Shown one piece after another: positions 6,695-26,250 of a stretch of DNA of 26,250 nucleotides; positions within the stretch are counted from its first letter, which is position 1, and each line of letters starts with the position of its first letter. Under the pieces are notes generated by a model. It made no database searches. It was not told the DNA's origin and saw nothing but the letters and a program-made list of their open reading frames with translations. A program made the position numbers and the translations under genes. This DNA is from Candidatus Scalindua sp. Its GTDB lineage: Bacteria > Planctomycetota > Brocadiia > Brocadiales > Scalinduaceae. The DNA lies in NCBI GenBank assembly GCA_024654465.1, contig JANLHC010000135.1:1-26250 (forward strand), in the 5' to 3' direction.

Positions 6695-6855
6695 GCCCTT
6701 TTCGATAGTTTTCATTTTATCGTAATCAAGTACCATCAATACTTTTAGACCAATAATTTTTACAGAAAGCAACTTCATAATACCCGATTGATAATTTTTT
6801 GATTGGTGTTTTGTGTATAGTTATATTTCTGGTTGTTTATTAGGGAGGTAAGATA

Positions 6856-7658: not shown

Positions 7659-7687
7659 AAGTATTAGTATTTGTAAAGTAAACAACC

Positions 7688-8908: not shown

Positions 8909-9001
8909 AAGTTAAAATAGTGATGCCTTGGTATTCCGACTGAAAATACCGCTAGCATTTCTCAGCTTAAAAAATAATTTCTATAGAGGTAGATAGTATA
9001 T

Positions 9002-10237
9002 ATGAATAATCGCCTGGTTATAACTGGAATAAGTGTCTTATCGTCAATCGGTGTGAACAAGGATGAGTTCTGGATCAATTTGACAAATGGCGCTTCCGGA
9101 ATAAAAGATATCACGCTATTTGATGTCTCTAAATATAACAGCAAAAAAGCGGGTGAGATAACAGATTTTGATGCAAAAGAATACTTAGGGAAAAAAGGTA
9201 TTCGCCACATAGATAGAACATCGTTATTGGTATCCTCTGCGGCAAAACTTGCCATGGAAGATGCTAATATCACTCATGAAACTTATGGTGCCGACGAACT
9301 GGGGATAGTAATCGGGTCAACGTATGGCAGTATTGACAGTATCAGCTCATTCGACTTGGAAGGATTAAAGGAAGGACCAACTTTCGTAAATCCCATGGAA
9401 TTTCCAAATACTGTCCTAAATGCACCGGCAAGCAGGGTATCTATTTTCTGTAATGCGACAGGCTTAAATTCTACAATATCTACAGGTACTGCCAGTGGAT
9501 TGGACGCTATCATTTACGCTTCTGATTTCCTAAGGCTAGGCAGAGGAAAAGCGGTGGTAGCCGGCGGAGTTCATGGTTTAACTCCCGATGTTTTCTGGGG
9601 AGCTTACCGCTCAGGAATATTGTCAGGAAGCCGTAACGGTGATATTGAAATTTCCGCACCATTTGATAAAAGACGTAATGGCTTTATTATTGGCGAAGCT
9701 GCCGCATTACTTGTTATTGAAAGGCTCGAAGACGCATTGGAAAGAAACGCGAAAATCTATGCCGAGATAAAAGGATACGGATGTACGTTTAACCCTGACA
9801 AGGTTTCTCGTGACCACATTGACACCACCCAAGGCGTAAGATGTATCTCTATCGCAATGAAAGATGCCGGGATTAATTCCGAAGATATTTCTTATATCTC
9901 CGCATGCGCAAATTCCAGTATGACCGGCGACATAATGGAAGCTAGAATCATTAAAGACTATTTTGGTGATAACGCTGACAAGGTACCTGTGAGTGCAATA
10001 AAGTCAATGACAGGAGAATGCCTTGATGCATCAGGGTCATTACAGTGTGTTGCCGGTGTATTGGCAATCAATAATGGTATTATCCCTCCGACAATAAACT
10101 ATCAGGAAAAAGATGAAGAGTGTAATCTGGATTGCGTACCTAACAATAGCAGAGAATCAGAGGTAAACAATGTCCTTATCAACTCCTTTTCCGATACAGG
10201 CAACATTTCAGCGGTAATCATATCAAAATATTCATAA
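9002..10237 (+). CDS. KAS-fold paralogue lacking the Cys-His-His triad (KS-beta / chain-length-factor-like)
   Basis: It aligns along its full length to the upstream FabF. The equivalent positions read STGT163ASGLDA (Cys->Thr, codon 9488-9490), SAC302ANSSMTGD (His->Cys) and KSMTGE339CLDASG (His->Glu). Confidence 0.85.
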   Translation: MNNRLVITGISVLSSIGVNKDEFWINLTNGASGIKDITLFDVSKYNSKKAGEITDFDAKEYLGKKGIRHIDRTSLLVSSAAKLAMEDANITHETYGADELGIVIGSTYGSIDSISSFDLEGLKEGPTFVNPMEFPNTVLNAPASRVSIFCNATGLNSTISTGTASGLDAIIYASDFLRLGRGKAVVAGGVHGLTPDVFWGAYRSGILSGSRNGDIEISAPFDKRRNGFIIGEAAALLVIERLEDALERNAKIYAEIKGYGCTFNPDKVSRDHIDTTQGVRCISIAMKDAGINSEDISYISACANSSMTGDIMEARIIKDYFGDNADKVPVSAIKSMTGECLDASGSLQCVAGVLAINNGIIPPTINYQEKDEECNLDCVPNNSRESEVNNVLINSFSDTGNISAVIISKYS

Positions 10238-10256
10238 CTTCAAAGCGACAGTCTTC

Positions 10257-11690
10257 ATGAGTAATTTCTCTCTGAACAAATCTGAACTAAAATCCAAGTA
10301 TGATGTAATTGTACTGGGAGCCGGAATTGCCGGTCTAATCTGCGGGACTTTTCTGGCAAAACATGGAAAGAAAGTACTGATTATTGAACAACATAGTATT
10401 CCCGGAGGTTATTGTACCTCTTTCAAGAGAAAAGGCTTTATTTTTGATGCCGCAGTTCATCATATTGGTGGGTGTGGAAAATGGAGTGTTGTTGGCAGGT
10501 GCCTTAAAGAACTTGACATAAATATTAATTTCCTGCAACTTGACCCCATGGATAGCATACATTTCCCTTCATTTTCCATTGATGTACCTGCCGAGATCGA
10601 CGATTATGTGGATCTGTTAATGAAACGTTTTCCCTCAGAAAGGGAACAACTATCACTTTTTTTTAAGGAGTTTATCAGACTATATCGGGCTACATTCAGC
10701 ACTGAAAGACATGAGATGCTCATCAAATACCAGAACCTTACCTACAAGGAAATGTTGGATAAATTTTTTACAGATGAGCAGCTTAAAATGACACTTTCTG
10801 CACAGTGGGGATACATAGGTTCACCTCCTCACGAAGTTTCGGCTATTGGCATGTGTCAAATGCTGATAAATTATCTGAAAGATGGGGCTTATTTCCCAGT
10901 CGGCGGTACCCAGAATTTCTCAGATACAATCACTCAAAAATTTATTGACTATGGCGGACACATTATGCTATCTTCTAGCGCAGAGAAGGTACTAACAGAG
11001 GATAGTATTATAAAAGGAGTTACAACACAAAAAGGAGAGAAGATCACTGCTGATACTTTTGTTTCAAACATTGATCCCAAACAAACTTTTTTCTGTTTAA
11101 TAGATAAAAATACCGTTGATGACTCATTTCTTAGCAAGATTGAGAATATGAAGGAGAGTGTTTCATTCTTTTTACTATACCTTGGTCTTGATGACAAAAT
11201 AGACTTAAAAGGCCTGAAAAGAGGTTTTTACCATACATCAAAGAACTTAAATTTTTCCGGCAGTGACTGGTTTTATATTTCCGTTCCTACGGAAGTTGAT
11301 TCAAGCCTGGCACCTGATAACAAACAAATAATTTCTGTTGTTGCCTCGTCAAGAGACGATTACGACAACATAGACGATTGGGCCGCGTATAAAAATAAAA
11401 TGAAAGAACATACAATAAATTATCTGAAAAATTATGTACCAGACATTCAGAACCATATTGAAGTAATTGACGCCGCCACACCGAAGACGCTACATCGCTA
11501 CACACTTAACTCAAAAGGCGCGGCTTATGGTTGGGCTGTTACTGTAGACCAGACAGGATCAAATAGACTTCCGCACACAACACCTTTCAAAAATCTTTTT
11601 CTGGCCGGGCACTGGACTAATCCTGGGCCGGGGATATGTGCGGTTGTATCCTCTGGTTGGAGAGTCGCTAATATGATTTTAAATAATTAG
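10257..11690 (+). CDS. FAD-dependent oxidoreductase of the phytoene desaturase (CrtI/CrtD) family
   Basis: N-terminal dinucleotide fold YDVIVLGAGIAGLICGTFLAKHGKKVLIIEQHSIPGGYC. C-terminal LFLAGHWTNPGPGI. The 477-aa length fits the family. Confidence 0.85.
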   Translation: MSNFSLNKSELKSKYDVIVLGAGIAGLICGTFLAKHGKKVLIIEQHSIPGGYCTSFKRKGFIFDAAVHHIGGCGKWSVVGRCLKELDININFLQLDPMDSIHFPSFSIDVPAEIDDYVDLLMKRFPSEREQLSLFFKEFIRLYRATFSTERHEMLIKYQNLTYKEMLDKFFTDEQLKMTLSAQWGYIGSPPHEVSAIGMCQMLINYLKDGAYFPVGGTQNFSDTITQKFIDYGGHIMLSSSAEKVLTEDSIIKGVTTQKGEKITADTFVSNIDPKQTFFCLIDKNTVDDSFLSKIENMKESVSFFLLYLGLDDKIDLKGLKRGFYHTSKNLNFSGSDWFYISVPTEVDSSLAPDNKQIISVVASSRDDYDNIDDWAAYKNKMKEHTINYLKNYVPDIQNHIEVIDAATPKTLHRYTLNSKGAAYGWAVTVDQTGSNRLPHTTPFKNLFLAGHWTNPGPGICAVVSSGWRVANMILNN

Positions 11691-11702
11691 GAGGATTAAG
11701 AA

Positions 11703-13166
11703 ATGAAGAAAATGATGCTTATCAATCCACATCCCCCTGGGCGACATGGCGAGGAGAGCATATCTGTCATAGTTCAAATGCCGTTAAATCTGGCATACAT
11801 CGCGGCCCTTACACCGGGTGACTGGGAGTTCGACGTAATCGATGAAAATTTGGAACTAGCCCTTGATGATAACGGAGAAATTACATTTGAGCCTGTGGAT
11901 TTAGTTTGTATCACTTCTGTTACCTATCAAGTGCCAAGAGCTTACCAAATAGCCGAGATCTGCAGAAAAAAAGGTATGACCGTGATCATGGGTGGTATAC
12001 ACGCTTCGGTAGTGCCAGAGGAAGCCTCAAAATATGTGGATGCTATTTTTATCGGAGAGGCAGAGACTCTCTGGCCACAAGTCATTAAAGATTTTGAAAA
12101 TGGCGAACTCAAAAAAGAGTACAATGGCGGCCTGCCGGGCCTGTCAGAGATGAAGCATGTATTTCCAGATAGGGAACTTCTGAAGAAGAAGTATGATTAC
12201 AAGTTTTCATCTATTGTTACAACAAAAGGTTGTCCGAATTACTGCGATTTCTGCAGCGTACCAACCTTTCAGGGAAAAAAATACCGGGAAAGACCGTATG
12301 AAGACGTCCTGGACGAAATGGAAGCTACGGACTACAAGGGGCTCATGTTTGCCGAAGATAATTTTTATGGCCATAGCAAGAACTCTGCTAACAGGGCAAA
12401 GGCTCTCTTTCGTGGCATGATAGATAGGGGCATTAAAAAGGACTGGCTTGGGTTTACTGCACTCAACATATCAAAGGACGCAGAGGTACTTGATCTTATG
12501 GCAAAGAGTGGAAATTTTGGATTTCTCTGCGGCATAGAATCAACAAATGAAGCAGTTCTGGAGAAGATGAACAAAACGACTAATTTAAGAATTGGTGCCG
12601 ATAATTATTATGACAGCGTTCAAAAAATCCACGATCACGGCCTTGTTGTCTGGGGCTCTATAGTGTTGGGAGCAGATGGTGATGACAAAGATTCATTCAA
12701 AAGAATGACAGAATTTGTGCTGGAAAACAATATTGACGTTCTTACATTTGGCATTAATTGTCCGTTTCCTAAGACAGCGCTTTATGATAGGCTTGATTCT
12801 GAAAAGAGGATTTTTAGAAAGAATTACCCTGAAGACTGGAAATATTATGATACTGCACATGTGGTTCACAGACTTGTGGATATGAACCTTGAGGAGTTCA
12901 TAGACGGCATGCAATATATGTATGATCATCTGTATGCTGGAGACAACCTGAGAATGCGATTCAGGAAATCACTTCAAACTATTGGCAGTACGACTCATGG
13001 TAAACGTAACGCCATGTTTGGATTCAGGGTTGGCTCTGACTGGATACAGGTATTTGAGCAGGTACTGGAAAATCTTCGTCTACTATACGATTCAGGGGAT
13101 TATTACAAAGACTGGTACAAGAGCAGTGCCGTTACTGTTCCTTCCGATAAGGGAGTAACTGTTTAA
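11703..13166 (+). CDS. Cobalamin-binding-domain (class B) radical SAM enzyme
   Basis: Radical SAM motif C177PNYC181DFC184 (12231-12254). It is preceded by an N-terminal Rossmann-like B12-binding-type domain (DLVCITSVT...VIMGGIHAS). AGGAGG lies upstream, 12 nt after the desaturase stop. Confidence 0.85.
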   Translation: MKKMMLINPHPPGRHGEESISVIVQMPLNLAYIAALTPGDWEFDVIDENLELALDDNGEITFEPVDLVCITSVTYQVPRAYQIAEICRKKGMTVIMGGIHASVVPEEASKYVDAIFIGEAETLWPQVIKDFENGELKKEYNGGLPGLSEMKHVFPDRELLKKKYDYKFSSIVTTKGCPNYCDFCSVPTFQGKKYRERPYEDVLDEMEATDYKGLMFAEDNFYGHSKNSANRAKALFRGMIDRGIKKDWLGFTALNISKDAEVLDLMAKSGNFGFLCGIESTNEAVLEKMNKTTNLRIGADNYYDSVQKIHDHGLVVWGSIVLGADGDDKDSFKRMTEFVLENNIDVLTFGINCPFPKTALYDRLDSEKRIFRKNYPEDWKYYDTAHVVHRLVDMNLEEFIDGMQYMYDHLYAGDNLRMRFRKSLQTIGSTTHGKRNAMFGFRVGSDWIQVFEQVLENLRLLYDSGDYYKDWYKSSAVTVPSDKGVTV

Positions 13167-13556: not shown

Positions 13557-14048
13557 ATGTTAAATATTTATAGAAAACTTATCATTTCTATGGTTGCTTT
13601 GTTTGTGTTTGTTGTATTAAGCTTTGCAAATAGCACAATTAATAAGGTACAAGCAGTAGATTATATTAAAAAACCATCAGAAACCCATCATCAGTCATTT
13701 GAACCATATGAAAATCCAATCGTTATTCCTGATCCAAAACCCAGAGGCACTGTAGTAAGAGTTAAAGAGATAACGACATATGATGTCGTTGTTGATGAAG
13801 CAAAGATAGCAGCAAATAACGTTACCATGGCTGATCTCGAACTTATAGAGGTGAAGGACAAGAAGGATATCAATTTCCACCAGGTAGACTGTTATTTCTA
13901 TGCAAAGGTAAAACAGACTCAGACAAAATCAACAAACTATGGAGCAAGCACACGATGGAGAGAAGGAGAGCAATTCTGGCTATCAGACGGTGGGAAATAT
14001 GTTGAGTGGGAGCCATGGTCAGAATGGTATTCAGGTAATAAGTGGTAA
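13557..14048 (+). CDS. Secreted hypothetical protein with a Trp-rich C-terminus
   Basis: RBS GGAAGGTGG. Signal-peptide-like N-terminus (LIISMVALFVFVVLSFANS). C-terminus WREGEQFWLSDGGKYVEWEPWSEWYSGNKW. No family recognised. Confidence 0.6.
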   Translation: MLNIYRKLIISMVALFVFVVLSFANSTINKVQAVDYIKKPSETHHQSFEPYENPIVIPDPKPRGTVVRVKEITTYDVVVDEAKIAANNVTMADLELIEVKDKKDINFHQVDCYFYAKVKQTQTKSTNYGASTRWREGEQFWLSDGGKYVEWEPWSEWYSGNKW

Positions 14049-14317: not shown

Positions 14318-14950
14318 TTAGAAAGATTCGTCTTTTTTTGCAAGCAGACTGATCTTTATGTCTGTATACATTAGAGACATCACCCTATTCATCCCCCTAT
14401 GTGACATCAAGTTAAACTCTTCGAGTTTAACTTCCAAATCTCCATTTAGCCACACCATCTTCTTATGTATTTCGTCTTCTTCTGTTAAATCCGGTTCGCC
14501 ATTTCCCTCTATAAAAATTGTCTCGGTCTTCTTTATATCATCTTCAGCAAATTGTAAAGTATAGTCCTTCCAACTATTGAGAACGACAATTTTATAAAGT
14601 TTATCTTCATAAAAAAAGAATGTGAAGCGGCCGCCGGAAACGTTTCTGGAAAGCGTGGTAACCTTATTGTTTACCATCGGATCATATTCAAATTTGTCTG
14701 GAGCAGGAAATTGTTTCTGTACCTCACTTACGCTTACTCCAAACTCAAGCGGTTGTACCATTGTTTTTGTATCGGGGGTGTATTCGTCCTCAGGTGCGTT
14801 ACCTAGCATTGCTCTAAGAGCCTGAGCCTCTTTATAGAGTTCTTCATCTGCGATTACCTTTTTATCCGTAGCAACCTTCTCAGTTGTAGTACAGTTTTGT
14901 ATAATTACCAATGTAGAAATTAACAACAATACCAGCCGGATATTTTTCAT
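14318..14950 (-). CDS. Hypothetical exported protein, possible lipoprotein
   Basis: N-terminus MKNIRLVLLLISTLVIIQNC, with a hydrophobic signal followed by Cys; the lipobox is non-canonical. No family recognised. Confidence 0.55.
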   Translation of the reverse strand: MKNIRLVLLLISTLVIIQNCTTTEKVATDKKVIADEELYKEAQALRAMLGNAPEDEYTPDTKTMVQPLEFGVSVSEVQKQFPAPDKFEYDPMVNNKVTTLSRNVSGGRFTFFFYEDKLYKIVVLNSWKDYTLQFAEDDIKKTETIFIEGNGEPDLTEEDEIHKKMVWLNGDLEVKLEEFNLMSHRGMNRVMSLMYTDIKISLLAKKDESF

Positions 14951-15009
14951 ACTGATTTTTCCATGTCATGGATGGGGAATTGTAAAATGGATTCTGAAGT
15001 TCTATGATA

Positions 15010-16002
15010 TCAAGGCACTTCTATATTATCAAAGATGTTTTGTATGACTTTTTCTGCGGTCATTTCTTCTGCTTCTGCTTCATAGGTTATGATAACTCTA
15101 TGTCGCAGCACATCCATTCCTATAGACTTTACATCTTGTGGAGTGACATAACCCCTGCCTTTGAGAAAAGCATATGCCTTTGACGCAATCGCCAGGTAAA
15201 TTGTTGCCCTGGGCGAAGCACCATATTCAATGAATTCACCTAAATTAAGGCCGTATTTCTGAGGATCTCTGGTGGCAATTACCAAGTCCACTATGTAGTC
15301 CTTTATCTTATCATCAATGTAAATCTGGTCGACTACCGCACGTAGGCGCTTAATGTCATCTGGTTTTAATACAGAATCCACTTTTATGTTGGTATCTGTC
15401 AATGCCATTCTGTCTAAAATCTCACGTTCTTCGCTTTTACTGGGATAATCAACATTAAGCTTTAACATGAATCTGTCAACCTGTGCTTCAGGCAAAGGAT
15501 AAGTACCTTCCTGCTCAATTGGGTTTTGTGTAGCAAGTACCAGGAAAGGATCTTCGAGTTTAAATGTCTCACTGCCTATCGTTACCTGCTTCTCCTGCAT
15601 AGCCTCTAAAAGCGCGCTCTGAACCTTTGCAGGTGCCCTGTTAATTTCATCAGCAAGTATAATATTTGAGAATATCGGTCCTTTTTTTGTAGTAAACTCA
15701 CCAGAACGAGGATTGTAGATAAGGGTACCTATCAGGTCTGCCGGCAGGAGATCAGGTGTAAATTGAAGCCTTTGGTACTTCACCTGAATTGCTTTTGCCA
15801 GTGTCATAACAGATAGGGTCTTTGCTAATCCGGGAACACCTTCCAGGAGGATATGGCCATTCGCCAGAATACCAATCAGCAATCTTTCTATAAGATGTTT
15901 TTGTCCTACAATTACTTTCCCCATCTCATTGCTTAGGTTAGAAAGAACACCGCTCTCTTCTTTAATAATATCCGTTATATTTTTAATGTCTTTTGATTCC
16001 AT
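15010..16002 (-). CDS. MoxR-family AAA+ ATPase (AAA_3)
   Basis: GHILLEGVPGLAKT (Walker A), ILADEINRAPAKVQSALLEAMQEKQVT (Walker B/sensor) and ATQNPIEQEGTYPLPEAQVDRF. Confidence 0.92.
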   Translation of the reverse strand: MESKDIKNITDIIKEESGVLSNLSNEMGKVIVGQKHLIERLLIGILANGHILLEGVPGLAKTLSVMTLAKAIQVKYQRLQFTPDLLPADLIGTLIYNPRSGEFTTKKGPIFSNIILADEINRAPAKVQSALLEAMQEKQVTIGSETFKLEDPFLVLATQNPIEQEGTYPLPEAQVDRFMLKLNVDYPSKSEEREILDRMALTDTNIKVDSVLKPDDIKRLRAVVDQIYIDDKIKDYIVDLVIATRDPQKYGLNLGEFIEYGASPRATIYLAIASKAYAFLKGRGYVTPQDVKSIGMDVLRHRVIITYEAEAEEMTAEKVIQNIFDNIEVP

Positions 16003-16070
16003 ATTAGTCTACACTTGTTTGATGGTTATCGGAAGTAAAAGTCAAAGTTAGATAGTCTTATGAACTTTTG

Positions 16071-18374
16071 TTATTGAATTTCTCTTACTACGCATGCTTC
16101 TATCAGATCTTCAATCTTATCTTTATTCATCAGGTAGACAAAGTTTGTCTCTGAACCGGTAACATAATAATCATTACCGGCTTCTTTGCCAACCAGCAAT
16201 GAGACCTCACCATCGTCAAAACTAATGGTAATATTGAACTGTGGGTTATCTAATCCATATTTTGATAAATCCTTGTTTGAATACTGTACAATAGACTCAC
16301 CCATCAGTAACTTCATTGAAGAAATGATTCGATCTGCTAAATTCCCACTCAATAGCATGATTTCCGGTTTGATCATTTGCCACACATGTTCTTCATTTTT
16401 CTGAAAAAGCAGCTCATTTTCAGGATGTATTATTTTAATAGACTTCGCATTTGTGGAATCGAAGCTAAACAGTGTCCTTGTGACAAGCTCAATACTGTAA
16501 TCCCTGACGTCAGTCCACCCTACCTGAAAAACCATATCCTGACCATCCACCTTAGCATAGTAGTTAGATTTATCCTTTTCCGGTTCAACTTTATTTCCTA
16601 TCAGGAGCGTTTTTGTTTTCAATTCCTTTGGCTTTACCAAGTCACTCTTCTCACTAATTACTTCATCGCTGTGCGCAGCCATTCCAGATGCTTCGTATGT
16701 TACAGATGCTTTTAACAGAGGCTTGTCAAGCCCATAATCAGCAAGATTTTCTGCTGAAAGAGTCACTATCTTATCAGCCAACAAAAATGATAGATTCCAT
16801 ACCACTTGATTGATGGAGTCCAATTCTGCTTCCATTGTTACAGGACTTACCATATTCCACTTCGGCCTGCGCATAGTAGAATCTTCCGTCGTCTCACATA
16901 TGAGTGTTTTACCATCACGCTCTATGACTATTTTTTGAGCTGTTTCCTTGGGAAATTCCATGACTAATTTATCTCTGAATGCGAGATAACCAGCCTTAGC
17001 AATTTCATAAAAATTTTCCGTTGGAACGGTATATACAGCATCTTCTCCGTCTCGCCTTACATAGCACAGTCCACCATTTTCGTCTGCATTACCTATCAAA
17101 AATTTCACCGTTTCACCTTCGCCGATTCTTCTGAATACTGAAACTTCGATAGGTGAGTCTGCTAATCCGTACTTCTCAAAGTTATCACCACTATCGTCAA
17201 CATACTGCTGTATCTGCAAATCCTTAATTTTTTCCACGAATTCTCTTACCGTATCTCTATCAGCCAGAATTTCTTTTGGCGATTTAATCATCCAGTCATA
17301 TTGCGCTGTCTTTTCCATAACAAGGTGTGCATCAGAAGATTTCAAATCAATTTTTTCTATCCCGTAAGTACCTATTGCATCAAACCTCAATAGCTGTTTG
17401 TCCCGCAAATCGTTCAGTTCCAAATCTAGATCGCGAAGAATAATATCGTGTACTAGAAAAATAGAACTTTCGCCGTCAAGCTTTGCGTAGATCTTTTCAT
17501 CCAGACGGTGACCCAAACGGAGAGTTTGCACATTGTCTGTAGTACCTATACTGATAGTAAATACGGGCTTATCCAGACCGTAGTTGATAATATCTTCTTT
17601 GCTATCAGACACAAAATCCTCTTTTGCAATCTTCAGGTTTTTTAATTCATTGAGAATATCCTGGATTCTTTCAGTATCAGCACGGTCTGAAAGTGGTTGT
17701 GTTATCCACCAGAGTTGCTCCGCCTTAGAACACACCACAGGCTCATTCTCGCCGCTCTCAAGTCTCAATCTTTCTACAGAATGTTTATCATACTCAAATG
17801 CCCATTTATTTCTTAAATCATTGATTTCTTTGTTTACTTTCTCCAGAAATTTAGCGTCAACGACAGAAACATTCTTGTCGTCCCCCACAGTTATATATAC
17901 AGTGTCTTGTCCGGCTGCCAGCCTATCCCCGATACTAACGGTATACTTGGTAACATCTCCGGCAGTTCCACCAACCATTGAACCCTTTTTAAGCCAGAGG
18001 CTAACAACAAGATCTGGGGTTTCAAGGCCATATTCTTTCAAGCTGAAGTTTGCTGTTTCACTTTCTTTAACAACACCGATTTTTCTCAGAAACTCAAATT
18101 GTGCGAGAATTTCTGCCACCTCAGCTTTGTCAGCTCTCAGTTGCAGAGGCTCCACCATCCTCCAGTTCTCATTATCGGTACTTTCAAGGACGATATTAGT
18201 ATCCCCCTTTTTCATTTCAATTTTATTAATCTGGCCTGGTTTGTAATCCGGCAATACCATTTGCTGCCTCTGTACCCATACATCTGTCCTGTATTGTCTT
18301 TTGTCATACAGAAATATGTATGCCGCACCAATGCCTGCAATTATTAAAAGTATTATAGTCGTTCTAAATTTCAT
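16071..18374 (-). CDS. DUF4340-type protein with five tandem domain repeats and an N-terminal membrane anchor
   Basis: The likely start is MKFRTTIILLIIAGIGAAYIF (ATG at 18374, which avoids overlap with the upstream gene). The motif pair W.(M/I)..P...AD......(I/V) followed by YGL(D/E).P occurs five times, with YGL at residues 135/285/422/567/726 of the 787-aa track ORF. Position after a GldG-like gene is typical for DUF4340. Confidence 0.75.
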   Translation of the reverse strand: MKFRTTIILLIIAGIGAAYIFLYDKRQYRTDVWVQRQQMVLPDYKPGQINKIEMKKGDTNIVLESTDNENWRMVEPLQLRADKAEVAEILAQFEFLRKIGVVKESETANFSLKEYGLETPDLVVSLWLKKGSMVGGTAGDVTKYTVSIGDRLAAGQDTVYITVGDDKNVSVVDAKFLEKVNKEINDLRNKWAFEYDKHSVERLRLESGENEPVVCSKAEQLWWITQPLSDRADTERIQDILNELKNLKIAKEDFVSDSKEDIINYGLDKPVFTISIGTTDNVQTLRLGHRLDEKIYAKLDGESSIFLVHDIILRDLDLELNDLRDKQLLRFDAIGTYGIEKIDLKSSDAHLVMEKTAQYDWMIKSPKEILADRDTVREFVEKIKDLQIQQYVDDSGDNFEKYGLADSPIEVSVFRRIGEGETVKFLIGNADENGGLCYVRRDGEDAVYTVPTENFYEIAKAGYLAFRDKLVMEFPKETAQKIVIERDGKTLICETTEDSTMRRPKWNMVSPVTMEAELDSINQVVWNLSFLLADKIVTLSAENLADYGLDKPLLKASVTYEASGMAAHSDEVISEKSDLVKPKELKTKTLLIGNKVEPEKDKSNYYAKVDGQDMVFQVGWTDVRDYSIELVTRTLFSFDSTNAKSIKIIHPENELLFQKNEEHVWQMIKPEIMLLSGNLADRIISSMKLLMGESIVQYSNKDLSKYGLDNPQFNITISFDDGEVSLLVGKEAGNDYYVTGSETNFVYLMNKDKIEDLIEACVVREIQ

Positions 18375-18399
18375 AGTTATATAAAGTCTCCGTTTATTA

Positions 18400-19986
18400 T
18401 TATCTTCTTCTTCTCCACCAGACGTAGCCGCCAATTATTATTCCGATAGAAGGTAGCCCTGCAATAGACAGCCAGAATATTGCAGCTAGTTGTCCAGGCC
18501 TGACAATCGCCCTCCTGACGTCAGGAGCTTTAGCAGATATCCCTAACTCCTTTTCCCTCCGAGCCAGCCAGCTTATAGCATTTAAGACAAGGTCCTGATT
18601 TCCCGGGTTATCAGAAAATGCGTTTGCGGCAAAATCTGTATCACCGAAGACAACAACACGCGGCCCCTTTTTACCAATATCGGCAAAAGCCTGTGTAGCA
18701 TGTGGAGGTGCAGTAGGGTTTGGTTTCGCTTCTCTCAGCTCTGATACCGCTGCTAAGATAATTGGAGAACTAATATCTGAGTCTTCATCATATTTCGGTC
18801 TTTTTTTACCAACTATCTCAGTTTCACCCCAACTTTGGTCGGGAGCTTGTACAATCCCTGTAGCAACGAATGCCATTGTGTCGCTCAAAGGGGCAATGCT
18901 AAGTACGCTTGAACCATAAAAAACTGATGTCAGTTTTTTGATGTCTGCTGTTATCTCATGGTCTAAGTATTTCTTATCACTTATATAAACCTCAACAACC
19001 GTCTGCATACCAAAAAGCGGCATATTCACTTTGTTGTATACAACGGCATCATCCCTGACAACTATACCGTATTCTCCAAGCAATGCACTTAAACCAGGTG
19101 ATTTATTGACGCCTACGGCAGGTTCAAGCATTACGAGTAACTTGCCGTTTTTAAGTTCACCTTTATCGTTTATCAGTCTTGCCGAAGTTCCAACATAGTC
19201 TCGAATATAGTTTGTTTCTTGTGTTGAGAAACTTTTTGTTGGACCGGCAATGAAGAGTATGTCGCAATTTTCAGGAACTCGCTTCTGTTGTAATAAATCA
19301 AGTGGCAGAACGTTGTAATTAGCACGTTTGATAGCGCTTGCCAATTTTCCTAAGCCCGCACGTTCAAAATCCTCGTAATCTCTCTCTCCATGTCCTTTGG
19401 TAAAGTAAACGTTTGTCTGTTTTTCCCGTGTTACATTTAAAACTGCTGACGTAAAGATCTCTTCGCCCTTGAATTTGAAAGGAAATTCTCTTTCGATTAC
19501 CTCTGATTGTTGTACATGTTTACTTTTATCTCCACAAGTGAAGATTATAGAATTGATTTGCAATTGCTCCAGATCCATCTTGAGCTTCTCTGCCAGCTCA
19601 GTTATTTTAGTACGATCGGTCAACGGGTTCAGGAGAGTAACCGTTATCTTGTCTGATAGATACTTATATTCTTCAAGTATATCTATGACCTGCCCGTAAA
19701 AACGGTAATCCTGTTTTTTTACCAGAAGTGAGGTAATAAAAACAGGTTGATCAAGATTTTTCAGAATTTTCTTTGTTTTAGCACTTAGTGAGTATTTTCC
19801 AGACGCAGTAAAGTCACAACGGTAGTAATGTCTATCGTTAATATAGCTGACAAAGACAAAGATCGCGATAGCGATAAGTATCATAAAAATCACATTAGCC
19901 CCGATCAGGGTTTTTTGTTTTTTTATATTTTGTGGATTCTCTGGTGTTATTACTTCTTTATTATTCAATGACTTTCCTACCTCCAT
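18400..19986 (-). CDS. GldG-like auxiliary component of an ABC-2 transport system
   Basis: N- and C-terminal TM anchors flank a large periplasmic domain, ending ...GGYVWWRRRR. The gene overlaps the upstream permease gene by 10 nt. The order ATPase-permease-GldG is conserved. Confidence 0.75.
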   Translation of the reverse strand: MEVGKSLNNKEVITPENPQNIKKQKTLIGANVIFMILIAIAIFVFVSYINDRHYYRCDFTASGKYSLSAKTKKILKNLDQPVFITSLLVKKQDYRFYGQVIDILEEYKYLSDKITVTLLNPLTDRTKITELAEKLKMDLEQLQINSIIFTCGDKSKHVQQSEVIEREFPFKFKGEEIFTSAVLNVTREKQTNVYFTKGHGERDYEDFERAGLGKLASAIKRANYNVLPLDLLQQKRVPENCDILFIAGPTKSFSTQETNYIRDYVGTSARLINDKGELKNGKLLVMLEPAVGVNKSPGLSALLGEYGIVVRDDAVVYNKVNMPLFGMQTVVEVYISDKKYLDHEITADIKKLTSVFYGSSVLSIAPLSDTMAFVATGIVQAPDQSWGETEIVGKKRPKYDEDSDISSPIILAAVSELREAKPNPTAPPHATQAFADIGKKGPRVVVFGDTDFAANAFSDNPGNQDLVLNAISWLARREKELGISAKAPDVRRAIVRPGQLAAIFWLSIAGLPSIGIIIGGYVWWRRRR

Positions 19987-20687
19987 TTTCTACTCTCAAC
20001 ATTTCGTACTGTTATAAACAAAAGTAATGCCGTAAAACTCAGATAGTAAATTACATCCCTGGTATCCACAATGCCTTTTGTAAAAGATGACCAATGGTCA
20101 TAAGTCCCAATATACCGTAGTGATTCGTAAAACCAACCATCACCGTACGTACTTAGAAAACCAACTACCCATAGAATTATTAATGCAACTATTCCGATCA
20201 CGGCAGCAACAACTTGATTCTTAGTTAACGATGACACAAGCAAACCGATAGATACAAATAGTCCACCCATAAGTATTAGTCCAATATAACTGGAAAAAAT
20301 TGGCCCGAAGTCCGGATTCCCGAAAATACTCAGAAATAATACATATATCCATGTCGGAAGGATCATTACAGTATACAGGCTTAAGGCGGCAAGAAATTTA
20401 CCAAATACTACATCAAAATCTGTTACCGGAGAAGTCATGAGTGTTTCCATCGTCCCGGACTTTGACTCATCTGCAAAAAGCTTCATGGTGATCACGGGCG
20501 TAAGCAACAGAAGGAAAAATTGAATTGAGTCCAGGCTTCCCTTAAGGGAAGCTTCCTGCCAGAACTGCAGATTGCCTGCAAAAAAGAAACCGGATGCAAT
20601 AAGGAATACAGAAATCACAACGTATGCAATTGGTGAATAAAAGTAGGACAAGATTTCTCGTTGAAATATAGTAGTTACGTTACGCAC
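19977..20687 (-). CDS. ABC-2 family permease (GldF-like)
   Basis: 236 aa with about 6 hydrophobic helices. It overlaps the ATPase gene by 8 nt. Confidence 0.8.
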   Translation of the reverse strand: MRNVTTIFQREILSYFYSPIAYVVISVFLIASGFFFAGNLQFWQEASLKGSLDSIQFFLLLLTPVITMKLFADESKSGTMETLMTSPVTDFDVVFGKFLAALSLYTVMILPTWIYVLFLSIFGNPDFGPIFSSYIGLILMGGLFVSIGLLVSSLTKNQVVAAVIGIVALIILWVVGFLSTYGDGWFYESLRYIGTYDHWSSFTKGIVDTRDVIYYLSFTALLLFITVRNVESRKWR

Positions 20688-21633
20688 TGGCTGTTTCTTC
20701 CTCCGTTTCCTTGGTAGTGACCTGATGAAAAATTTCCTCTAAGGTAATCGTCTGTCGTTTCATTTCTCGCAGTATATAATTATCTTTTACAATGCAATTA
20801 AAAACATCTTCCCTTATATCTTTTTCACCATTTCCATTTATATAAAACTCATTTGCGTCGTCCTTTTTTCTATATGTCACAGATTGGACGGTGTCAACGC
20901 GGGACAAGCTGTTTTTTATTTTTTCTCCATCTCCCTTTATCTCTAAAACCAGGTTTGAACCCGTTTTCAACTGTCTCATGAGATTTGCAGGTGTATCCAT
21001 TGCCACTATCTTACCCTTATTAATTATCATAACTCTATCACAGACCATTTCAACTTCAGGAAGAATATGTGTTGACAGCAATACTGTATGCTTCTGTCCC
21101 AGGCCCTTAATAACACCCCTGATCTGCCGGATCTGATTAGGATCAAGCCCAATTGTAGGCTCGTCGAGAATTAAAACTTTCGGATCATGGACTAACGTAT
21201 CCGCAAGGCCCACTCTCTGCTTATACCCTTTTGACAAAGTGCCTATGATCTGATTTTGCACATCTGTTATTCCTGTCATTTCGAGACAATATTCTATCTT
21301 TTTCCTTCTTTCTCTTCTGGGTATATTTTTTAGTTTTGCGCGAAACATCAGATACTCTTTCGCTCTCATGTCCAGATAAAGAGGGACATTCTCAGGTAAA
21401 TATCCAATCTCCTGGCGTACGTTTAGCGAATCGGTAAATACGTCATAACCGGCTACAGTTGCAGAACCGGCAGTCGCAGGCATAAAGCAGGTTAATATTC
21501 GCATAGTAGTCGTTTTACCGGCCCCATTTGGGCCAAGCAGACCGACTATTTCGTTTTCTTCCACATCGAAAGAAATATTGTCCACTGCGTTGACATTTAC
21601 ATATCGCTTCACTAAATTCTTGACTTTAATCAT
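20680..21633 (-). CDS. ABC transporter ATP-binding protein (GldA/CcmA-like)
   Basis: Walker A GPNGAGKTTT, signature LSKGYKQRVGLA, Walker B LILDEPTIGLD and the H-loop STHIL. Confidence 0.93.
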   Translation of the reverse strand: MIKVKNLVKRYVNVNAVDNISFDVEENEIVGLLGPNGAGKTTTMRILTCFMPATAGSATVAGYDVFTDSLNVRQEIGYLPENVPLYLDMRAKEYLMFRAKLKNIPRRERRKKIEYCLEMTGITDVQNQIIGTLSKGYKQRVGLADTLVHDPKVLILDEPTIGLDPNQIRQIRGVIKGLGQKHTVLLSTHILPEVEMVCDRVMIINKGKIVAMDTPANLMRQLKTGSNLVLEIKGDGEKIKNSLSRVDTVQSVTYRKKDDANEFYINGNGEKDIREDVFNCIVKDNYILREMKRQTITLEEIFHQVTTKETEEETASA

Positions 21634-22045: not shown

Positions 22046-22074
22046 TTGACTTTGCAAATTTCCGGAAGTATTTT
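22046..22074 (+). promoter_or_regulatory. Candidate promoter for the cNMP/PqqD/kinase/NTase operon
   Basis: TTGACT (22046-22051), a 17-nt spacer, then TATTTT (22069-22074). Confidence 0.3.
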
Positions 22075-22202
22075 ATGTGGACTATAACTAAGTCAATCAG
22101 GTGGCGTTGCGTATTTTTTCAGTTGGCGATATATGATAGAAACGTAATAGCTAATATAGATAGTAAGGCCAGAATAATTGAATCTAAAATGGAGGGGTTG
22201 AT

Positions 22203-22610
22203 ATGGGTTTAGCTGGTTCCGCGTTCAAAGATGTTGGAAAAGAATTTCCGAAAGGTACTATATTATTTAAAGAAGGTGAAGAAGGTAAAGAAATGTTCCT
22301 GATTAATTCAGGTGAAGTTAAGCTGAGCAGGAAAACTCCGCATGGAGATGTGATTTTAGCAAAATTAGGCTTTGGAGAATTCTTCGGAGAAATGTCCGTC
22401 ATTACAAACAAACCAAGGACTGTTTCGGCTGAAACAGTAACTGATTGTCGACTGAATATCATAACAAAGGATATCTTGGAAACATTAGTGGCTGGTAAGC
22501 CTTTAGTGGCATTGAGCATTCTAAAAAAGCTGATGTTTAGACTGGAACATGCGTACGACCTTATTGAAGATCTTTACGTCAAACACATTAAACAAGATAA
22601 GGAAAAGTAG
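22203..22610 (+). CDS. Stand-alone cyclic-nucleotide-binding (CAP/Crp effector) domain protein, no output domain
   Basis: FKEGEEGKEMFLINSGEVKL......G..ILAKLGFGEFFGEMSVITNKPRTVSAETVTDC is the beta-roll cNMP-binding motif. At 135 aa there is no room for an HTH domain. RBS GGAGGGG. Confidence 0.85.
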   Translation: MGLAGSAFKDVGKEFPKGTILFKEGEEGKEMFLINSGEVKLSRKTPHGDVILAKLGFGEFFGEMSVITNKPRTVSAETVTDCRLNIITKDILETLVAGKPLVALSILKKLMFRLEHAYDLIEDLYVKHIKQDKEK

Positions 22611-22622
22611 CATATCTCAAAA

Positions 22623-22898
22623 ATGGAGATCAATGAAAACTTTGTACCAGTGACGAAGGGATGCGTTGAACTTGAGGAACTTGATGATGGCTGCATACTT
22701 TATGATACAGAGAAAGACGATGTGCACAGCTTAAATAGCACCGCAGCTACTGTCTGGATATGCTGTGATGGAAAGCATTCAATAGAGGAAATAGTGAACG
22801 TTGTAGAAAAAAGTTTCAAATCTGAAAGTAAGCCAGTTCTGAGAGACATAATAAAAATCATCAAAGATTTCTCAAAAAAAAAGCTTTTAACTCAATAA
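22623..22898 (+). CDS. PqqD-family protein (RiPP recognition element / peptide chaperone)
   Basis: ELDDGCILYDTEKDDVHSLNSTAATVWICCDGKHSIEEIVNVVEKSF....PVLRDIIKIIKDFSKKKLL follows the PqqD pattern (L.g....d.....h.LN.ta..iW...dG..t..ei...l). Confidence 0.8.
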   Translation: MEINENFVPVTKGCVELEELDDGCILYDTEKDDVHSLNSTAATVWICCDGKHSIEEIVNVVEKSFKSESKPVLRDIIKIIKDFSKKKLLTQ

Positions 22899-22946
22899 GC
22901 CTTGTGCCATCCCGGTATAAGGCCTTTTTATTGCATCCAGATTGTT

Positions 22947-23780
22947 ATGTATCTATTACATTACAAGCTCCAATCGCATCGGTTTACTATTCAGACAGGA
23001 AACAAAAAACTGGCAGACCTATGTTCTCATCTCTATCCAAACTCCAGGTCTAAGCGCCACGGATCCGCTCATGTTTTTTATTCACTGAAGATAGGAAACG
23101 ATAACGCTACCGGTACGGTTTATGAGATCCTTGTAAACGGCAAAAAAAAATATCAAACGAATATTAAATCAGAAATATTTTCCTCGCTCGAATGGATGAT
23201 TACATGCAACGCATTATCACATCTACACGAGTTCTTCCAATTGCACGCAGGAGCTGTCATAAAGGAAGGAAAGATTATACTTCTGCCTGCCAACCATGGC
23301 CAGGGAAAGACAACCCTGACGTTAAATCTTACCAGAAATCATTATCGTTGCCTTTCCGATGATATTGTCTTAATAGAGCCGGAAACAACCGGGATTATCC
23401 CTTTCCCACGAAGTTTTTTAATAAAAGACAAATCAATCAAAAATATGGCTGAATCTCATTTAATAGATAAAAAAAACGGGTACTATTGTAAATCAGAAGA
23501 CATTTTATACTATAATCCTTATTCCACGAACAAATCACCTATTAGAAATACAAAACCGCATACTATAATCGAATTAAAACACAGCCGTCGTTTTAAAAAT
23601 GAACTGAGACCGGTCAGCAAATCACAGATGTGTATTAAGCTATTGAAGCAGTCGTTTAACATTCACAACTACAAGCGGAATGGAGTCACGATACTGACAA
23701 GGCTGGTCAGAAATAGTAAGTGCTATTCTTTAAAGACAAACAACGTTACAGATGCCGTTCGCCTGGTGTCTCAAATATGA
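22947..23780 (+). CDS. HPr-kinase-related P-loop protein (HprK C-terminal-domain-like putative peptide kinase)
   Basis: LHAGAVIKEGKIILLPANHGQGKTTLTLNL...CLSDDIVLIE....IIPFPRS, with P-loop codons at 23298-23315. This resembles the HprK-related proteins that co-occur with PqqD-like genes. The start is taken at MYLLHYKLQSHRF (22947); the track start at 22902 is non-ATG. Confidence 0.7.
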   Translation: MYLLHYKLQSHRFTIQTGNKKLADLCSHLYPNSRSKRHGSAHVFYSLKIGNDNATGTVYEILVNGKKKYQTNIKSEIFSSLEWMITCNALSHLHEFFQLHAGAVIKEGKIILLPANHGQGKTTLTLNLTRNHYRCLSDDIVLIEPETTGIIPFPRSFLIKDKSIKNMAESHLIDKKNGYYCKSEDILYYNPYSTNKSPIRNTKPHTIIELKHSRRFKNELRPVSKSQMCIKLLKQSFNIHNYKRNGVTILTRLVRNSKCYSLKTNNVTDAVRLVSQI

Positions 23781-24973
23781 ACGAACCAACTATTAAAAGA
23801 TATATTGCCAGGCTCCTGAACCTTAAAAAAGGAGAAGAAGGTGTTGATAGAATATGGAATAAATTAGAATCAACAGGATGGGATGATGTTATAAATATCG
23901 CTCAAGAATATCGTGTAATGACATTTTTGTTTTATAAAATAAAACATCTCGGACTGGAAGAAAAACTAAAACCCGAAACCCTCCGAATTATGTCAATCAT
24001 ATATCAAAAGGGAGTGGCGCGGAATGTTGTTACCAGGCATGTGCTAAAGGATATAATCCGTTCATTGAATCAATGCGGCATAAAAGCCATCATACTAAAG
24101 GGTGCAATAAATTTTTGTGAGAATATTTATGAAAACTGGAATTTAAGATCAATGGAAGATCTGGATATTCTAATTAAGGAAGAAGATTTCCCTGTCGCAA
24201 GACAATGTATGCAGACTGCGGGGCTAAGTTATATAGGAGGCCAAATCCCTCGCGATCTCAGCGAAGATTTTGAAGGCAGGGATATAGCCATCGACATGCA
24301 CTATCTGCCGGTTCCTGAAAAGCACATCGACCTGTTTGATATGGATTCTTTCTGGTCAAACACAATATGCGTAGAGATGGATGGCCTTAAAACACATATT
24401 CCCAGCCCGACAGATCAAATATACCATAAGTTTGTTCACGACGTAATACGGCACCAGGAATTAGTAAATTTCCGGATTCAGGATTTGTGTGATTTTGTAA
24501 TGACCTCCCGATATTATAAAGAAAGGATAGACTGGGAAGAGATATTGCGCAGAGTCAGGAAAAATGATATTGAATCTTTATTTAAGTTTCACTGTTGGCA
24601 GATCAAGAGAAATCTCGGAGCAGAGCTACCACCACTAATAAACAGCCTGAGTGATAATAGTAATAAGTACTACAACAAATGCTACAACCAACTAAGTGAA
24701 TGCCCTGAATGGCTTGAATCTGCAAGCGAACGTCTCATGGCAATCCGGGTCAAGAGTGGAAATTTTTCTGCTCACCTTAAGAACTCATTTAATGTGCTGG
24801 TGAAAGAGTCAGCCCTGAAAGAATCAAGAGAGCTCCTGCTCTCTCTCTATCACATAAAGGACGGAAAACTCCTGTTACCATTCATCCGCACAATACACCT
24901 GTCCAGAATCCTCTTCCTGCACATTATGATTACCGCCTATCTCGCCAAACGACGATTGAGTACACCAAAATAA
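23777..24973 (+). CDS. Uncharacterised nucleotidyltransferase family protein (PF14907-like)
   Basis: IILKGAIN...WNLRSMEDLDILIKEEDF carries the polymerase-beta-type (h)GD.D motif, at about 400 aa. The ATGA start/stop overlap with the kinase-like gene (23777-23780) points to MNEPTIKRYI as the start. Confidence 0.7.
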   Translation: MNEPTIKRYIARLLNLKKGEEGVDRIWNKLESTGWDDVINIAQEYRVMTFLFYKIKHLGLEEKLKPETLRIMSIIYQKGVARNVVTRHVLKDIIRSLNQCGIKAIILKGAINFCENIYENWNLRSMEDLDILIKEEDFPVARQCMQTAGLSYIGGQIPRDLSEDFEGRDIAIDMHYLPVPEKHIDLFDMDSFWSNTICVEMDGLKTHIPSPTDQIYHKFVHDVIRHQELVNFRIQDLCDFVMTSRYYKERIDWEEILRRVRKNDIESLFKFHCWQIKRNLGAELPPLINSLSDNSNKYYNKCYNQLSECPEWLESASERLMAIRVKSGNFSAHLKNSFNVLVKESALKESRELLLSLYHIKDGKLLLPFIRTIHLSRILFLHIMITAYLAKRRLSTPK

Positions 24974-25065: not shown

Positions 25066-26250
25066 ATGCGAGACACTATTCACAATGAAGTGCGTAAAAT
25101 AATTGATAAAGCAATCGATCTAAGGCATCGGTTCCATGAGATACCGGAAAGTTCGTTTGAAGAAAACAAAACTTCACATTTGATTGTTCAGGAATTACAA
25201 CAAATGGGACTGGACGTTGAAGAAGGAATCGCCGGGACAGGCGTTGCCGCAAACATAAAAGGCGAACTCCCCGGTAATACTATCGCCTTACGTGCAGATA
25301 TGGATGCTCTTAATATTGAAGAAGAAACCTCAAAGCCGTATGCATCCAGGCACAAAGGGCTTTCACACAGTTGCGGACATGACGGGCATATTGTCTGTTT
25401 ACTAGAAGCCGCCCGCATACTTGTGAAACTTCGAGAACAGTTAGCTGGTACTGTAAGGGTTATTTTTCAGCCGGGGGAAGAAAACGGAACAGGCGCACAG
25501 GCCATGATAGCCGCCGGTGCACTGGGGAGTCCCCTGCCTGTCGCAATTTTCGCCTTACATGCATGGCCTTATCTGGAATCCGGTGTAGTTGCTTCGAAAC
25601 CTGGTAATATAACGGCTGCAATAGATTACTTCAGTATAACCGTAAAAGGCAAAGGCGGTCATGGAGCACGGCCCCATGAAAGTATCAACCCTATCATAAG
25701 TGCGTCGCACATAGTACAAGAAATAAGTGCACTTACGAATAAAGGTGATAACGGCAAATATCCATGCGTCGTGAGCGTGGGAATGATACAAGGCGGAGCA
25801 CAGCCAAATACCATCCCGGACCATGCATATATCGAAGGAACAATCAGGTCCACTAATGAAACAAACCGCCGGAAAACATTGGAAAAATTTAATAAAACGG
25901 TGAAGGAAATCGGGACTCAGCAGAATGTGCAGACAGCAATAGATTTCATTAAATACGGTCCACCCGTTAATAACAATCCATACCTGTACCACTTATTTGA
26001 AAAGGTAGGTGAAGAGCTGTTGGTCCCTGAAAAACGAGCGTATATTAAACAACAGAGTATGGGGTCAGAAGATTTTGGCAATTATACACAACTCCTCCCG
26101 GGCCTTCTGATTCGATTGGGAATGGGAAAATCATCTCCACCGCTTCACACGAGCAGGTTTGATTTTTGTGACAAATCTCTCGATGCGGGAATCACAATAC
26201 TGGTTGGCCTGGCAATGAAGGCTACAGAAAATGATTTTAAAGAGAAATGA
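25066..26250 (+). CDS. M20D-family amidohydrolase (N-acyl-amino-acid / hippurate hydrolase type)
   Basis: RHRFHEIPESSFEE.KTS, ALRADMDAL, HSCGHDGH and GSEDF are metal-ligand motifs of the ama/hipO/hyuC group. The stop falls on the last three bases of the window. Confidence 0.88.
   Translation: MRDTIHNEVRKIIDKAIDLRHRFHEIPESSFEENKTSHLIVQELQQMGLDVEEGIAGTGVAANIKGELPGNTIALRADMDALNIEEETSKPYASRHKGLSHSCGHDGHIVCLLEAARILVKLREQLAGTVRVIFQPGEENGTGAQAMIAAGALGSPLPVAIFALHAWPYLESGVVASKPGNITAAIDYFSITVKGKGGHGARPHESINPIISASHIVQEISALTNKGDNGKYPCVVSVGMIQGGAQPNTIPDHAYIEGTIRSTNETNRRKTLEKFNKTVKEIGTQQNVQTAIDFIKYGPPVNNNPYLYHLFEKVGEELLVPEKRAYIKQQSMGSEDFGNYTQLLPGLLIRLGMGKSSPPLHTSRFDFCDKSLDAGITILVGLAMKATENDFKEK

Follow-up and report, generated by a model that had tools for sequence, protein, structure and literature searches.

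The locus examined here raises the question of what a set of peptide-modifying genes acts upon when no peptide gene lies beside it. The 26,250-nucleotide stretch of Candidatus Scalindua sp. contig JANLHC010000135.1 that was analysed (hereafter the window) carries four same-strand genes at 22203-24973, which encode a cyclic nucleotide monophosphate (cNMP)-binding protein, a PqqD-type recognition element (RRE) for peptides made on the ribosome and modified after translation (RiPPs), an HprK-related kinase and a PF14907 nucleotidyltransferase. The reading that we favour, and to which we give an even chance, is that the operon specifies a module for RRE-guided phosphorylation and phosphate decoration, of the type known from linear polyphosphorylated peptides (LPPs) and phosphorylated lasso peptides, with no adjacent precursor, a substrate encoded elsewhere and a cNMP protein that is most likely regulatory. 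An earlier description made from the letters alone (the sequence-only reading) had reported the same arrangement and was confirmed as an observation. Its interpretation found partial support: the conserved unit, the lack of a lasso core and a substrate located elsewhere all stood, while a partnership with the downstream M20 amidohydrolase, membership in a catalogued system and, for the wider family, the lack of a short precursor open reading frame (ORF) did not.

Gene content, conservation and regulatory elements of the operon

Domains were assigned by Pfam and NCBIfam models and every window ORF of at least 90 aa was scanned against Pfam (Table 1). The genes are spaced by 12 nt, 48 nt and then a 4-nt ATGA overlap of the kinase stop with the PF14907 start, and the gene coordinates match this previously described layout. 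Searches with hidden Markov models (HMMs) and motif conservation also bore out the PqqD-type RRE, the HGQGKTT P-loop and the DLD nucleotidyltransferase motif of the sequence-only reading. In the kinase, the P-loop is followed by an SDD motif, and residues G120, K121 and D138 as well as an upstream His are invariant in distant homologues. An AlphaFold model of the kinase (pLDDT 72) matched the P-loop fold of ATP-dependent phosphoenolpyruvate carboxykinase (PEPCK) and HprK/P, with Foldseek E values against HprK/P chains of only 1e-3 to 1e-2. The likeness to HprK/P lies in the P-loop, the PEPCK-like fold and the G-x-G-K-[ST] ... DD arrangement, whereas the window kinase differs in having GKTT rather than GKSE, a different N-terminal domain and no HPr or phosphotransferase system context. 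The PF14907 protein contains the motif MEDLDIL, and its residues K108, G109, R124, D128, D130 and D239 (KG...R...DxD type) are invariant in 11 cassette nucleotidyltransferases, while a DxH motif (H175) is nearly invariant among cassette homologues; sequence searches returned no PDB relative of this protein. Because the Walker A, SDD and His residues and those of the nucleotidyltransferase are invariant, all enzymes of the operon look catalytically intact.

The PqqD protein of the window retains N38 and D75, which are nearly invariant among cassette PqqD proteins and align with N33 and D70 of LppB, the RRE of LPP clusters. Mutagenesis has demonstrated that both LppB residues are required for binding of the YxxP leader, with D70 forming a hydrogen bond to the leader Tyr and N33 fixing a Pro kink (PMC13381572). 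A profile of cassette PqqD proteins gave its best matches to the lasso B1 proteins TfuB1 (E 6e-11) and TbiB1 (2.5e-10), followed by chain 9x8z_B ('PqqD family protein'), whose Asn51 and Asp88 would, on the assumption of an 18-residue tag, correspond to LppB N33 and D70; we infer that this chain, which is consistent with LppB, is that protein. The remaining member of the operon, the cNMP protein, has no DNA-binding, catalytic or output domain, and its phosphate-binding cassette FGE...PRT.(S/T)AE is invariant across three lineages.

The closest homologues of the window proteins were found in metagenome-assembled genomes (MAGs) of Candidatus Brocadiales and Scalindua. Two sister lineages, represented by loci L016/L017 (83% kinase identity) and L015 (72%), have all four genes with order and spacing unchanged, and dN/dS values of 0.04-0.21 across the three lineages show that each of the genes evolves under purifying selection. 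Within the operon, constraint is strongest on the cNMP gene (dN/dS 0.04-0.09); this gene is confined to the window's Scalindua sub-clade, where it is strictly co-conserved with the other three genes, and no remnant of it was found in Scalindua sp. AMX11 or the other cassette loci examined. Upstream neighbours common to all three lineages are the RNA polymerase omega subunit gene and an ABC gene set. The gene downstream of the operon varies, being M20 in the window, EI24 in L015 and TerB with M28 in L016. Since this gene differs among the sister genomes, the M20 amidohydrolase falls outside the unit and the earlier suggestion that it might be a partner or substrate is not sustained.

Two regulatory elements are shared by the sister lineages. 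The promoter-like site TTGACT-N17-TATTTT had been proposed as the operon promoter, and taken alone it does not exceed chance (14 sites of this kind seen against 13.4 expected); it is nevertheless kept in L016 and L015 despite diverged intergenic flanks, and a GGAGG lies 8 nt 5' of the cNMP-gene ATG. The second element occupies the 48-nt gap between pqqD and the kinase gene and consists of a hairpin with a 10-bp stem followed by CTTTTTATT (minimum free energy -17.4 kcal/mol, z -3.9), which is kept in both L016 and L015, where base pairs have changed in a compensatory way (T-A to C-G, C-G to T-A). Such a conserved hairpin, with its U-tract and compensatory changes, suggests that expression is attenuated after the cNMP-pqqD pair and before the two enzyme genes; as a possible attenuator it may keep the cNMP and PqqD proteins abundant relative to the enzymes. 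A 45-aa ORF at 22075-22212, a gene in the public annotation, was rejected, its region being unconserved and partly missing in L015 and L016.

Comparison with known systems and the search for a precursor

The closest characterised system is the LPP family, rather than a lasso tailoring set. LPP clusters encode a precursor (LppA), an RRE (LppB), an HprK-like kinase (LppK), an uncharacterised nucleoside triphosphate (NTP) transferase (LppN), an SpI-like peptidase (LppS) and an MsbA-like exporter (LppD); they have no cyclase and often lie inside capsule loci (Popov et al., Nat Commun 2026, PMC13381572). Their precursors of 35-200 aa have a conserved YxxPxV leader and variable C-termini, LppK places several phosphates on core Ser3, and the family is described as confined to Bacillota (PMC13381572). 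The window shares with these clusters the trio of RRE, HprK-like kinase and NTP transferase, LppN being likened by its description and not by Pfam family, together with the absence of a cyclase and the retention of the leader-binding Asn and Asp. It differs in its planctomycete host, in the additional cNMP-binding gene and in having no SpI-type peptidase, MsbA-type exporter or adjacent precursor with a YxxPxV leader.

Phosphorylated-lasso tailoring sets likewise place an HPr-kinase homologue and a nucleotidyltransferase beside a PqqD-type B1 protein. The lasso kinases (PadeK of paeninodin, ThcoK, PsmK of pseudomycoidin) phosphorylate a precursor Ser before processing, and the nucleotidyltransferase PsmN decorates the lasso phospho-Ser with hexoses (PMC8498205). 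These sets differ from the window and its sister contigs, which have no cyclase, B2 protease or lasso precursor; among the loci collected, a lasso locus accompanied by a kinase was present only in L011. The Pfam scan of the window ORFs found no Asn-synthetase-like cyclase, transglutaminase-like B2 protease or SPASM enzyme, no lasso precursor of the YxxPxL...T type was detected in the window or in the 10 kb flanks of the sister contigs, and no lasso or other RiPP core lies within 10 kb on either side of the operon in those contigs. The window contig itself ends 538 nt past the window and there is no ORF in those 538 nt. The absence of a core from the window, as noted in the sequence-only reading, thus extends to the sequence immediately outside it, where a core would have made this an ordinary tailoring set.

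Two further catalogued systems were compared. The NCBIfam HPr-rel-A system, of unknown function, has the same PqqD-kinase-nucleotidyltransferase order in annotated Sphingomonas and Vibrio members, and its model TIGR04352 is the best kinase model, aligning over the full length of the window kinase (residues 8-276) at 106.2 bits, which is under the curated cut-off of 200. The PqqD protein reached 19.8 bits against TIGR04353 (PqqD_rel_X; cut-off 35), a model that is outscored on this protein by the ScmD, PqqD and lasso PqqD models, and the locus differs further from HPr-rel-A in its extra cNMP gene and the lack of an adjacent leader gene. Given these scores, the window locus is a divergent HPr-rel-A relative and not a certified member; the earlier view of the trio as a catalogued conserved system of unknown function therefore held for the conserved unit, but not for catalogue membership, and a closer characterised system exists in the LPPs. 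The SynChlorMet cassette (HprK-like ScmC, PqqD-like ScmD and the radical SAM/SPASM enzymes ScmE and ScmF) provides the best NCBIfam match of the window PqqD in ScmD (E 2.4e-9), and close kinase homologues carry the precomputed Pfam family PF27840 'ScmC'. The window differs from this cassette in having no SPASM radical SAM enzyme, and its scores stay under the cut-offs, at 19.7 against 125 bits for ScmC and 37.2 against 100 bits for ScmD.

On the basis of these comparisons the module can be pictured as follows. The PqqD protein would bind, as an added beta-strand, an aromatic-xx-P-x-(V/L/I) leader of a peptide or small secreted protein encoded elsewhere; the HprK-related kinase would then phosphorylate a Ser near the start of the core, possibly repeatedly as LppK does on S3, and the PF14907 enzyme may add a nucleotide-derived or sugar group to the phosphate in the manner of the lasso enzyme PsmN. 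The cNMP protein, presumably co-translated from the same promoter with the attenuator hairpin between it and the enzymes, would most likely couple the module to a cyclic-nucleotide signal. Because the cNMP protein carries no leader-type motif, it looks, from its sequence, more like a regulator than a substrate.

Several observations weigh against this reading. No precursor, peptidase or exporter gene was found within about 10 kb of the operon: a regex and HMM search in six frames gave no leader-type ORF in the window, L001, the 538-nt contig end or the approximately 10 kb flanks of L015 and L016, no signal-peptidase-like (SpI-type) protease occurs among the window ORFs of at least 90 aa or the called genes of the sister contigs, and the window ORFs of that size include no MsbA-type exporter, the sole ABC genes being an opposite-strand ABC-2/GldG-type set. 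As no leader-type ORF was found in any of these places the substrate is hypothetical, and one encoded elsewhere, as the sequence-only reading had put it, is still the best reading. For each of the named subfamilies the HMM scores likewise fall short of the curated cut-off. With the hairpin following pqqD, the implication is that production of the cNMP and PqqD proteins exceeds that of the enzymes, and excess of a product over its enzymes is the pattern usual for precursors, as RiPP operons usually separate an abundant precursor from the enzymes; this leaves room for the cNMP protein as a substrate. Finally, the activity of PF14907 enzymes has never been demonstrated in vitro (PMC8498205).

Two candidate sequences that came up in the precursor search were rejected. 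An antisense ORF at 25279-25076, within the M20 gene, contains SRRFLLQ but neither a hydrophobic nor a Pro motif, and the YENPIV motif in the 163-aa protein encoded at 13557-14048, the one YxxPxV to come up, reads YPNKIV in L015, the signal of this protein being of Sec type and not RR.

Related cassettes and their adjoining leader genes

A kinase profile search recovered 7618 cluster representatives at E <1e-10, of which 658 had E <1e-30. Our comparison set comprised 21 cassettes outside the window's clade, in which near-identical copies (L003/L004/L005, L006/L007/L008, L033/L035) were counted once. They were taken from Scalindua sp. AMX11, two metagenomic lineages, a Phycisphaerae MAG, Sphingomonas, Vibrio and Sinorhizobium replicons, a locus from a small-protein search, four diverse-homologue loci and eleven alphaproteobacterial plasmids or chromids; some alphaproteobacterial loci are orthologous to one training sequence, so that the 21 are not all independent, yet they span several phyla. 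The orthologues co-occur throughout this set as the sequence-only reading had led one to expect, with a PqqD gene or domain beside the HprK-related kinase in all 21 cassettes and PF14907 in 19 (all but L025 and L028). Fusion of PqqD to the kinase is seen in L028 and in the majority of loci on alphaproteobacterial plasmids and chromids, and many family loci lie within polysaccharide loci (Poly_export, GNVR, Wzy, Bac_transf, NeuB). A distant match in Methylosinus (L018) has the kinase only. A 132-nt degenerate pattern matched the cassette loci then in the set except L019 and L011, and its 5 loci in metagenome contigs were all false positives (kinase HMM at most 15 bits).

An adjacent gene of 63-270 codons was present in all 21 cassettes, located directly before PqqD or directly after the kinase or nucleotidyltransferase gene. 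The encoded N-terminus carries (S/D/E)RRxF(L/I/M)(K/R) in all but L027, which lacks the RR, and continues with a short hydrophobic stretch containing an aromatic residue and Pro (aromatic-x(2-4)-P-x-V), for example AYVAPVVMLL, TYVTPVVETF and RFAVVTPPAVTMLL. Most have an AxA-type site, often followed by Ser or Gly (AIA|KSGGG, AVA|GSGG), and the tails are highly variable, being Gly-rich, Lys/Arg-rich, made of SKP repeats or formed by larger domains. Lineages with such genes include Scalindua AMX11, Phycisphaerae, Sphingomonas, Vibrio, Rhizobiaceae and Roseobacteraceae. The absence of a short precursor ORF reported from the window holds for its clade and does not hold for the wider family.

A leader HMM was built from the first eight of these proteins and applied to loci collected later. 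Among 2410 ORFs of the eleven plasmid loci it matched one per locus and no more, always adjacent to the cassette (E 2e-3 to 4e-15), and in the four metagenomic loci it recovered the neighbour in three, the exception being the Cys-rich CxxxC-repeat peptide of L027 (KYVKPLIESF). Three leader proteins pass the NCBIfam twin-arginine translocation (TAT) signal model and two others fall just under its cut-off; no other NCBIfam model scored above cut-off, and public records list them as hypothetical proteins. Literature searches on the HprK-related kinase, PF14907, the TIGR accessions and PqqD with twin-arginine returned nothing on the cassette or the leader family. The Tat-like leader proteins are probably the substrates of the cassettes in these other lineages. 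In comparison with LPP precursors they are similar in having a conserved N-terminus, a variable C-terminus and a frequent location in polysaccharide loci, with lengths of 63-270 aa, and they differ in that the LPP leader reads YxxPxVLxHQxIxFETxxS, as opposed to the Tat-signal-peptide-like leader of the relatives outside Bacillota.

The nearest relative outside the window's clade is AMX11 (53% kinase identity), and its leader gene lies directly 3' of the kinase gene, a position that in the window is taken by the ATGA overlap of the kinase and PF14907 genes. The AMX11 arrangement indicates that the ancestor probably had an adjacent leader gene, and the overlap at the same position in the window indicates that the precursor gene was probably lost from the locus of the window's clade or moved. 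A search with the 95-aa AMX11 leader protein gave one weak match, which belonged to another cassette, and no homologue in the window's lineage.

Taken further, these data allow a proposal that we make tentatively and hold to be possible rather than probable. An LPP-like cassette family would extend beyond Bacillota into Planctomycetota, Alpha- and Gammaproteobacteria and others, with the RRE leader lying inside a Tat-type signal peptide and with general export and signal peptidase replacing the dedicated ones. The RRE would serve as a chaperone, similar to those of Tat proofreading, until phosphorylation is done, and the window's clade would have lost the precursor and recruited the cNMP protein, with the outcome that phosphorylation of secreted peptides comes under second-messenger control or that a protein becomes the new substrate.

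Other loci in the survey show variations of their own. The more distant Gemmatimonadaceae MAG locus L011 (7402-9603) encodes PqqD, a B2-like transglutaminase protease, a lasso-type YASPKLERFGTLRELT precursor (MYASPKLERFGTLRELT...) and an HprK-related kinase, and looks like a phosphorylated-lasso locus outside Firmicutes and Proteobacteria. The metagenomic locus L027 (846-5198) encodes PqqD, a Cys-rich peptide (80 aa, CxxxC repeats, KYVKPLIESF leader), a fusion of radical SAM/SPASM with PqqD, the HprK-related kinase and PF14907, and polysaccharide export genes come after these; it is a cross between the kinase cassette and a SynChlorMet/CXXX-repeat system. Some cassettes have extra genes between the kinase and nucleotidyltransferase (L003 10852-16102; L006 10664-11785; L008 6746-7867), namely phosphatidylserine-decarboxylase-like, TPR and spermine-synthase-like genes in AMX11 and a PRMT-type protein arginine methyltransferase in L006 and L008. 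These inserted genes may be further tailoring steps.

Competing explanations, genomic setting and implications

The main rival to the phosphorylation and decoration of a peptide encoded elsewhere is that the 135-aa cNMP protein is itself the substrate, phosphorylated by the kinase and nucleotidylylated by the PF14907 enzyme with PqqD as adaptor, which would yield a cyclic-nucleotide-responsive switch. The cNMP gene occupies the slot directly upstream of pqqD that is held by the leader gene in many other cassettes, it combines strict co-conservation with the trio and the strongest constraint in the operon, and the conserved hairpin falls after the cNMP-pqqD pair, at the usual divide between precursor and enzymes in RiPP operons. 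The kinase fold moreover matches HprK/P, which acts on the folded small protein HPr, the substrate of true HprK/P being a folded 88-aa protein. Opposed to this, neither an N-terminal extension nor a leader of RR or aromatic-xx-P-x-V type is present in the cNMP protein; its sole x-x-P-x-V stretch, AGKPLV, lies in an ordinary helix after the beta-barrel and has no aromatic residue; the PqqD protein retains residues specialised for a Tyr/Pro leader; and no other cassette of the family includes a cNMP protein. We consider this explanation unlikely. The cNMP protein had been named as a candidate in the sequence-only reading, and what stands of this is its co-conservation with the trio, although only in the Scalindua sub-clade, while its lack of a leader motif points to the regulatory role.

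It is also quite improbable that the operon has no peptide substrate at all and that the kinase and nucleotidyltransferase act on an envelope polysaccharide, lipid or small molecule, with PqqD as a structural subunit. No precursor was found, the operon adjoins a GldG-type ABC transporter set, and many family loci, like the LPP clusters, lie within polysaccharide loci; these same polysaccharide loci, however, have leader-type genes beside the RRE, the leader-binding N38 and D75 are kept under purifying selection, the characterised relatives act on peptides, and in the window the ABC genes that flank the operon lie on the opposite strand and its downstream genes are unconserved. That the operon is an anti-phage or toxin-type signalling module, in which a nucleotide signal made or transferred by the nucleotidyltransferase-fold enzyme would be sensed by the cNMP protein, is very improbable, for although the cNMP domain resembles Pycsar effector sensor domains (PADLOC, E 2.4e-7) and a MazF toxin gene lies elsewhere in the window, comparison with Pycsar and CBASS through PADLOC matched only this generic domain and none of the PqqD, kinase and nucleotidyltransferase proteins, the cNMP protein has no effector domain, and the locus shows synteny to housekeeping genes across three lineages and forms no variable island.

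The remainder of the window encodes a fatty-acid-type cluster, which we take to resemble the gene sets proposed for anammox ladderane lipid synthesis, as well as a carbamoyltransferase fragment, an alcohol dehydrogenase, a ParA-like ATPase and the RNA polymerase omega subunit. Pfam returned no match for two conserved proteins (13557-14048 and 14318-14950), of which the first combines a Sec-type signal peptide at its N-terminus with a Trp-rich C-terminus and is 75% identical in L015. A 99-aa ORF (1048-1347) and small ORFs near the MazF gene matched no family.

Table 1. Coordinates of features in the window and of leader genes adjoining related cassettes.
Locus	Feature	Coordinates	Strand	Evidence or remark
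Window	Promoter-like site TTGACT-N17-TATTTT	22046..22074	+	9/12 consensus matches
Window	Stand-alone cNMP-binding domain protein, 135 aa	22203..22610	+	PF00027 cNMP_binding, E 1e-22
Window	PqqD-type RRE, 91 aa	22623..22898	+	PF05402 PqqD, E 6.3e-12
Window	Hairpin + U-tract (terminator/attenuator-like), pqqD to kinase gene	22899..22933	+	Terminator scan
Window	HprK-related P-loop kinase, 277 aa	22947..23780	+	TIGR04352 HprK_rel_A, E 1.6e-30
Window	PF14907 (NTP_transf_5) nucleotidyltransferase-fold protein, 398 aa	23777..24973	+	PF14907, E 3.5e-37
Window	M20 amidohydrolase	25066-26250		Downstream of operon
Window	MoxR ATPase, DUF4340, GldG-type auxiliary protein, ABC-2 permease, ABC ATPase	14318-21633	-	Upstream of operon in all three clade lineages
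Window	Fatty-acid-type cluster: FabA/Z-like dehydratase, two ketosynthases, amine-oxidase/phytoene-desaturase-like flavoprotein, B12-binding radical SAM	7209-13166	+	
Window	B12-binding radical SAM gene	11703-13166		Sole radical SAM of window; in fatty-acid-type cluster, 9 kb from operon
Window	MazF/PemK-type toxin gene	2536-2892		
L003	Leader gene	10852-11139		
L006	Leader gene	9093-9326		
L008	Leader gene	5053-5301		
L010	Leader gene	338-529		
L012	Leader gene	7963-8448		
L013	Leader gene	7704-8516		
L014	Leader gene	10892-11203		
L019	Leader gene	2026-2244		
L025	Leader gene	271-891		
L026	Leader gene	about 760-924		
L028	Leader gene	6024-6758		
L029-L039	Leader genes			

The trio of RRE, HprK-related kinase and nucleotidyltransferase was tied to a product class, the LPPs, only in 2026, and then as a system restricted to Bacillota. 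The window locus and its relatives suggest that Gram-negative lineages and anammox planctomycetes widely share this enzymology, and the leader proteins supply concrete candidates, open to test, for the substrates of a large family whose function is unknown (7618 representatives). The variant in the window, with its cNMP sensor and without precursor, peptidase or exporter, could show how such a module is regulated or how it is redirected to a distant or protein substrate.

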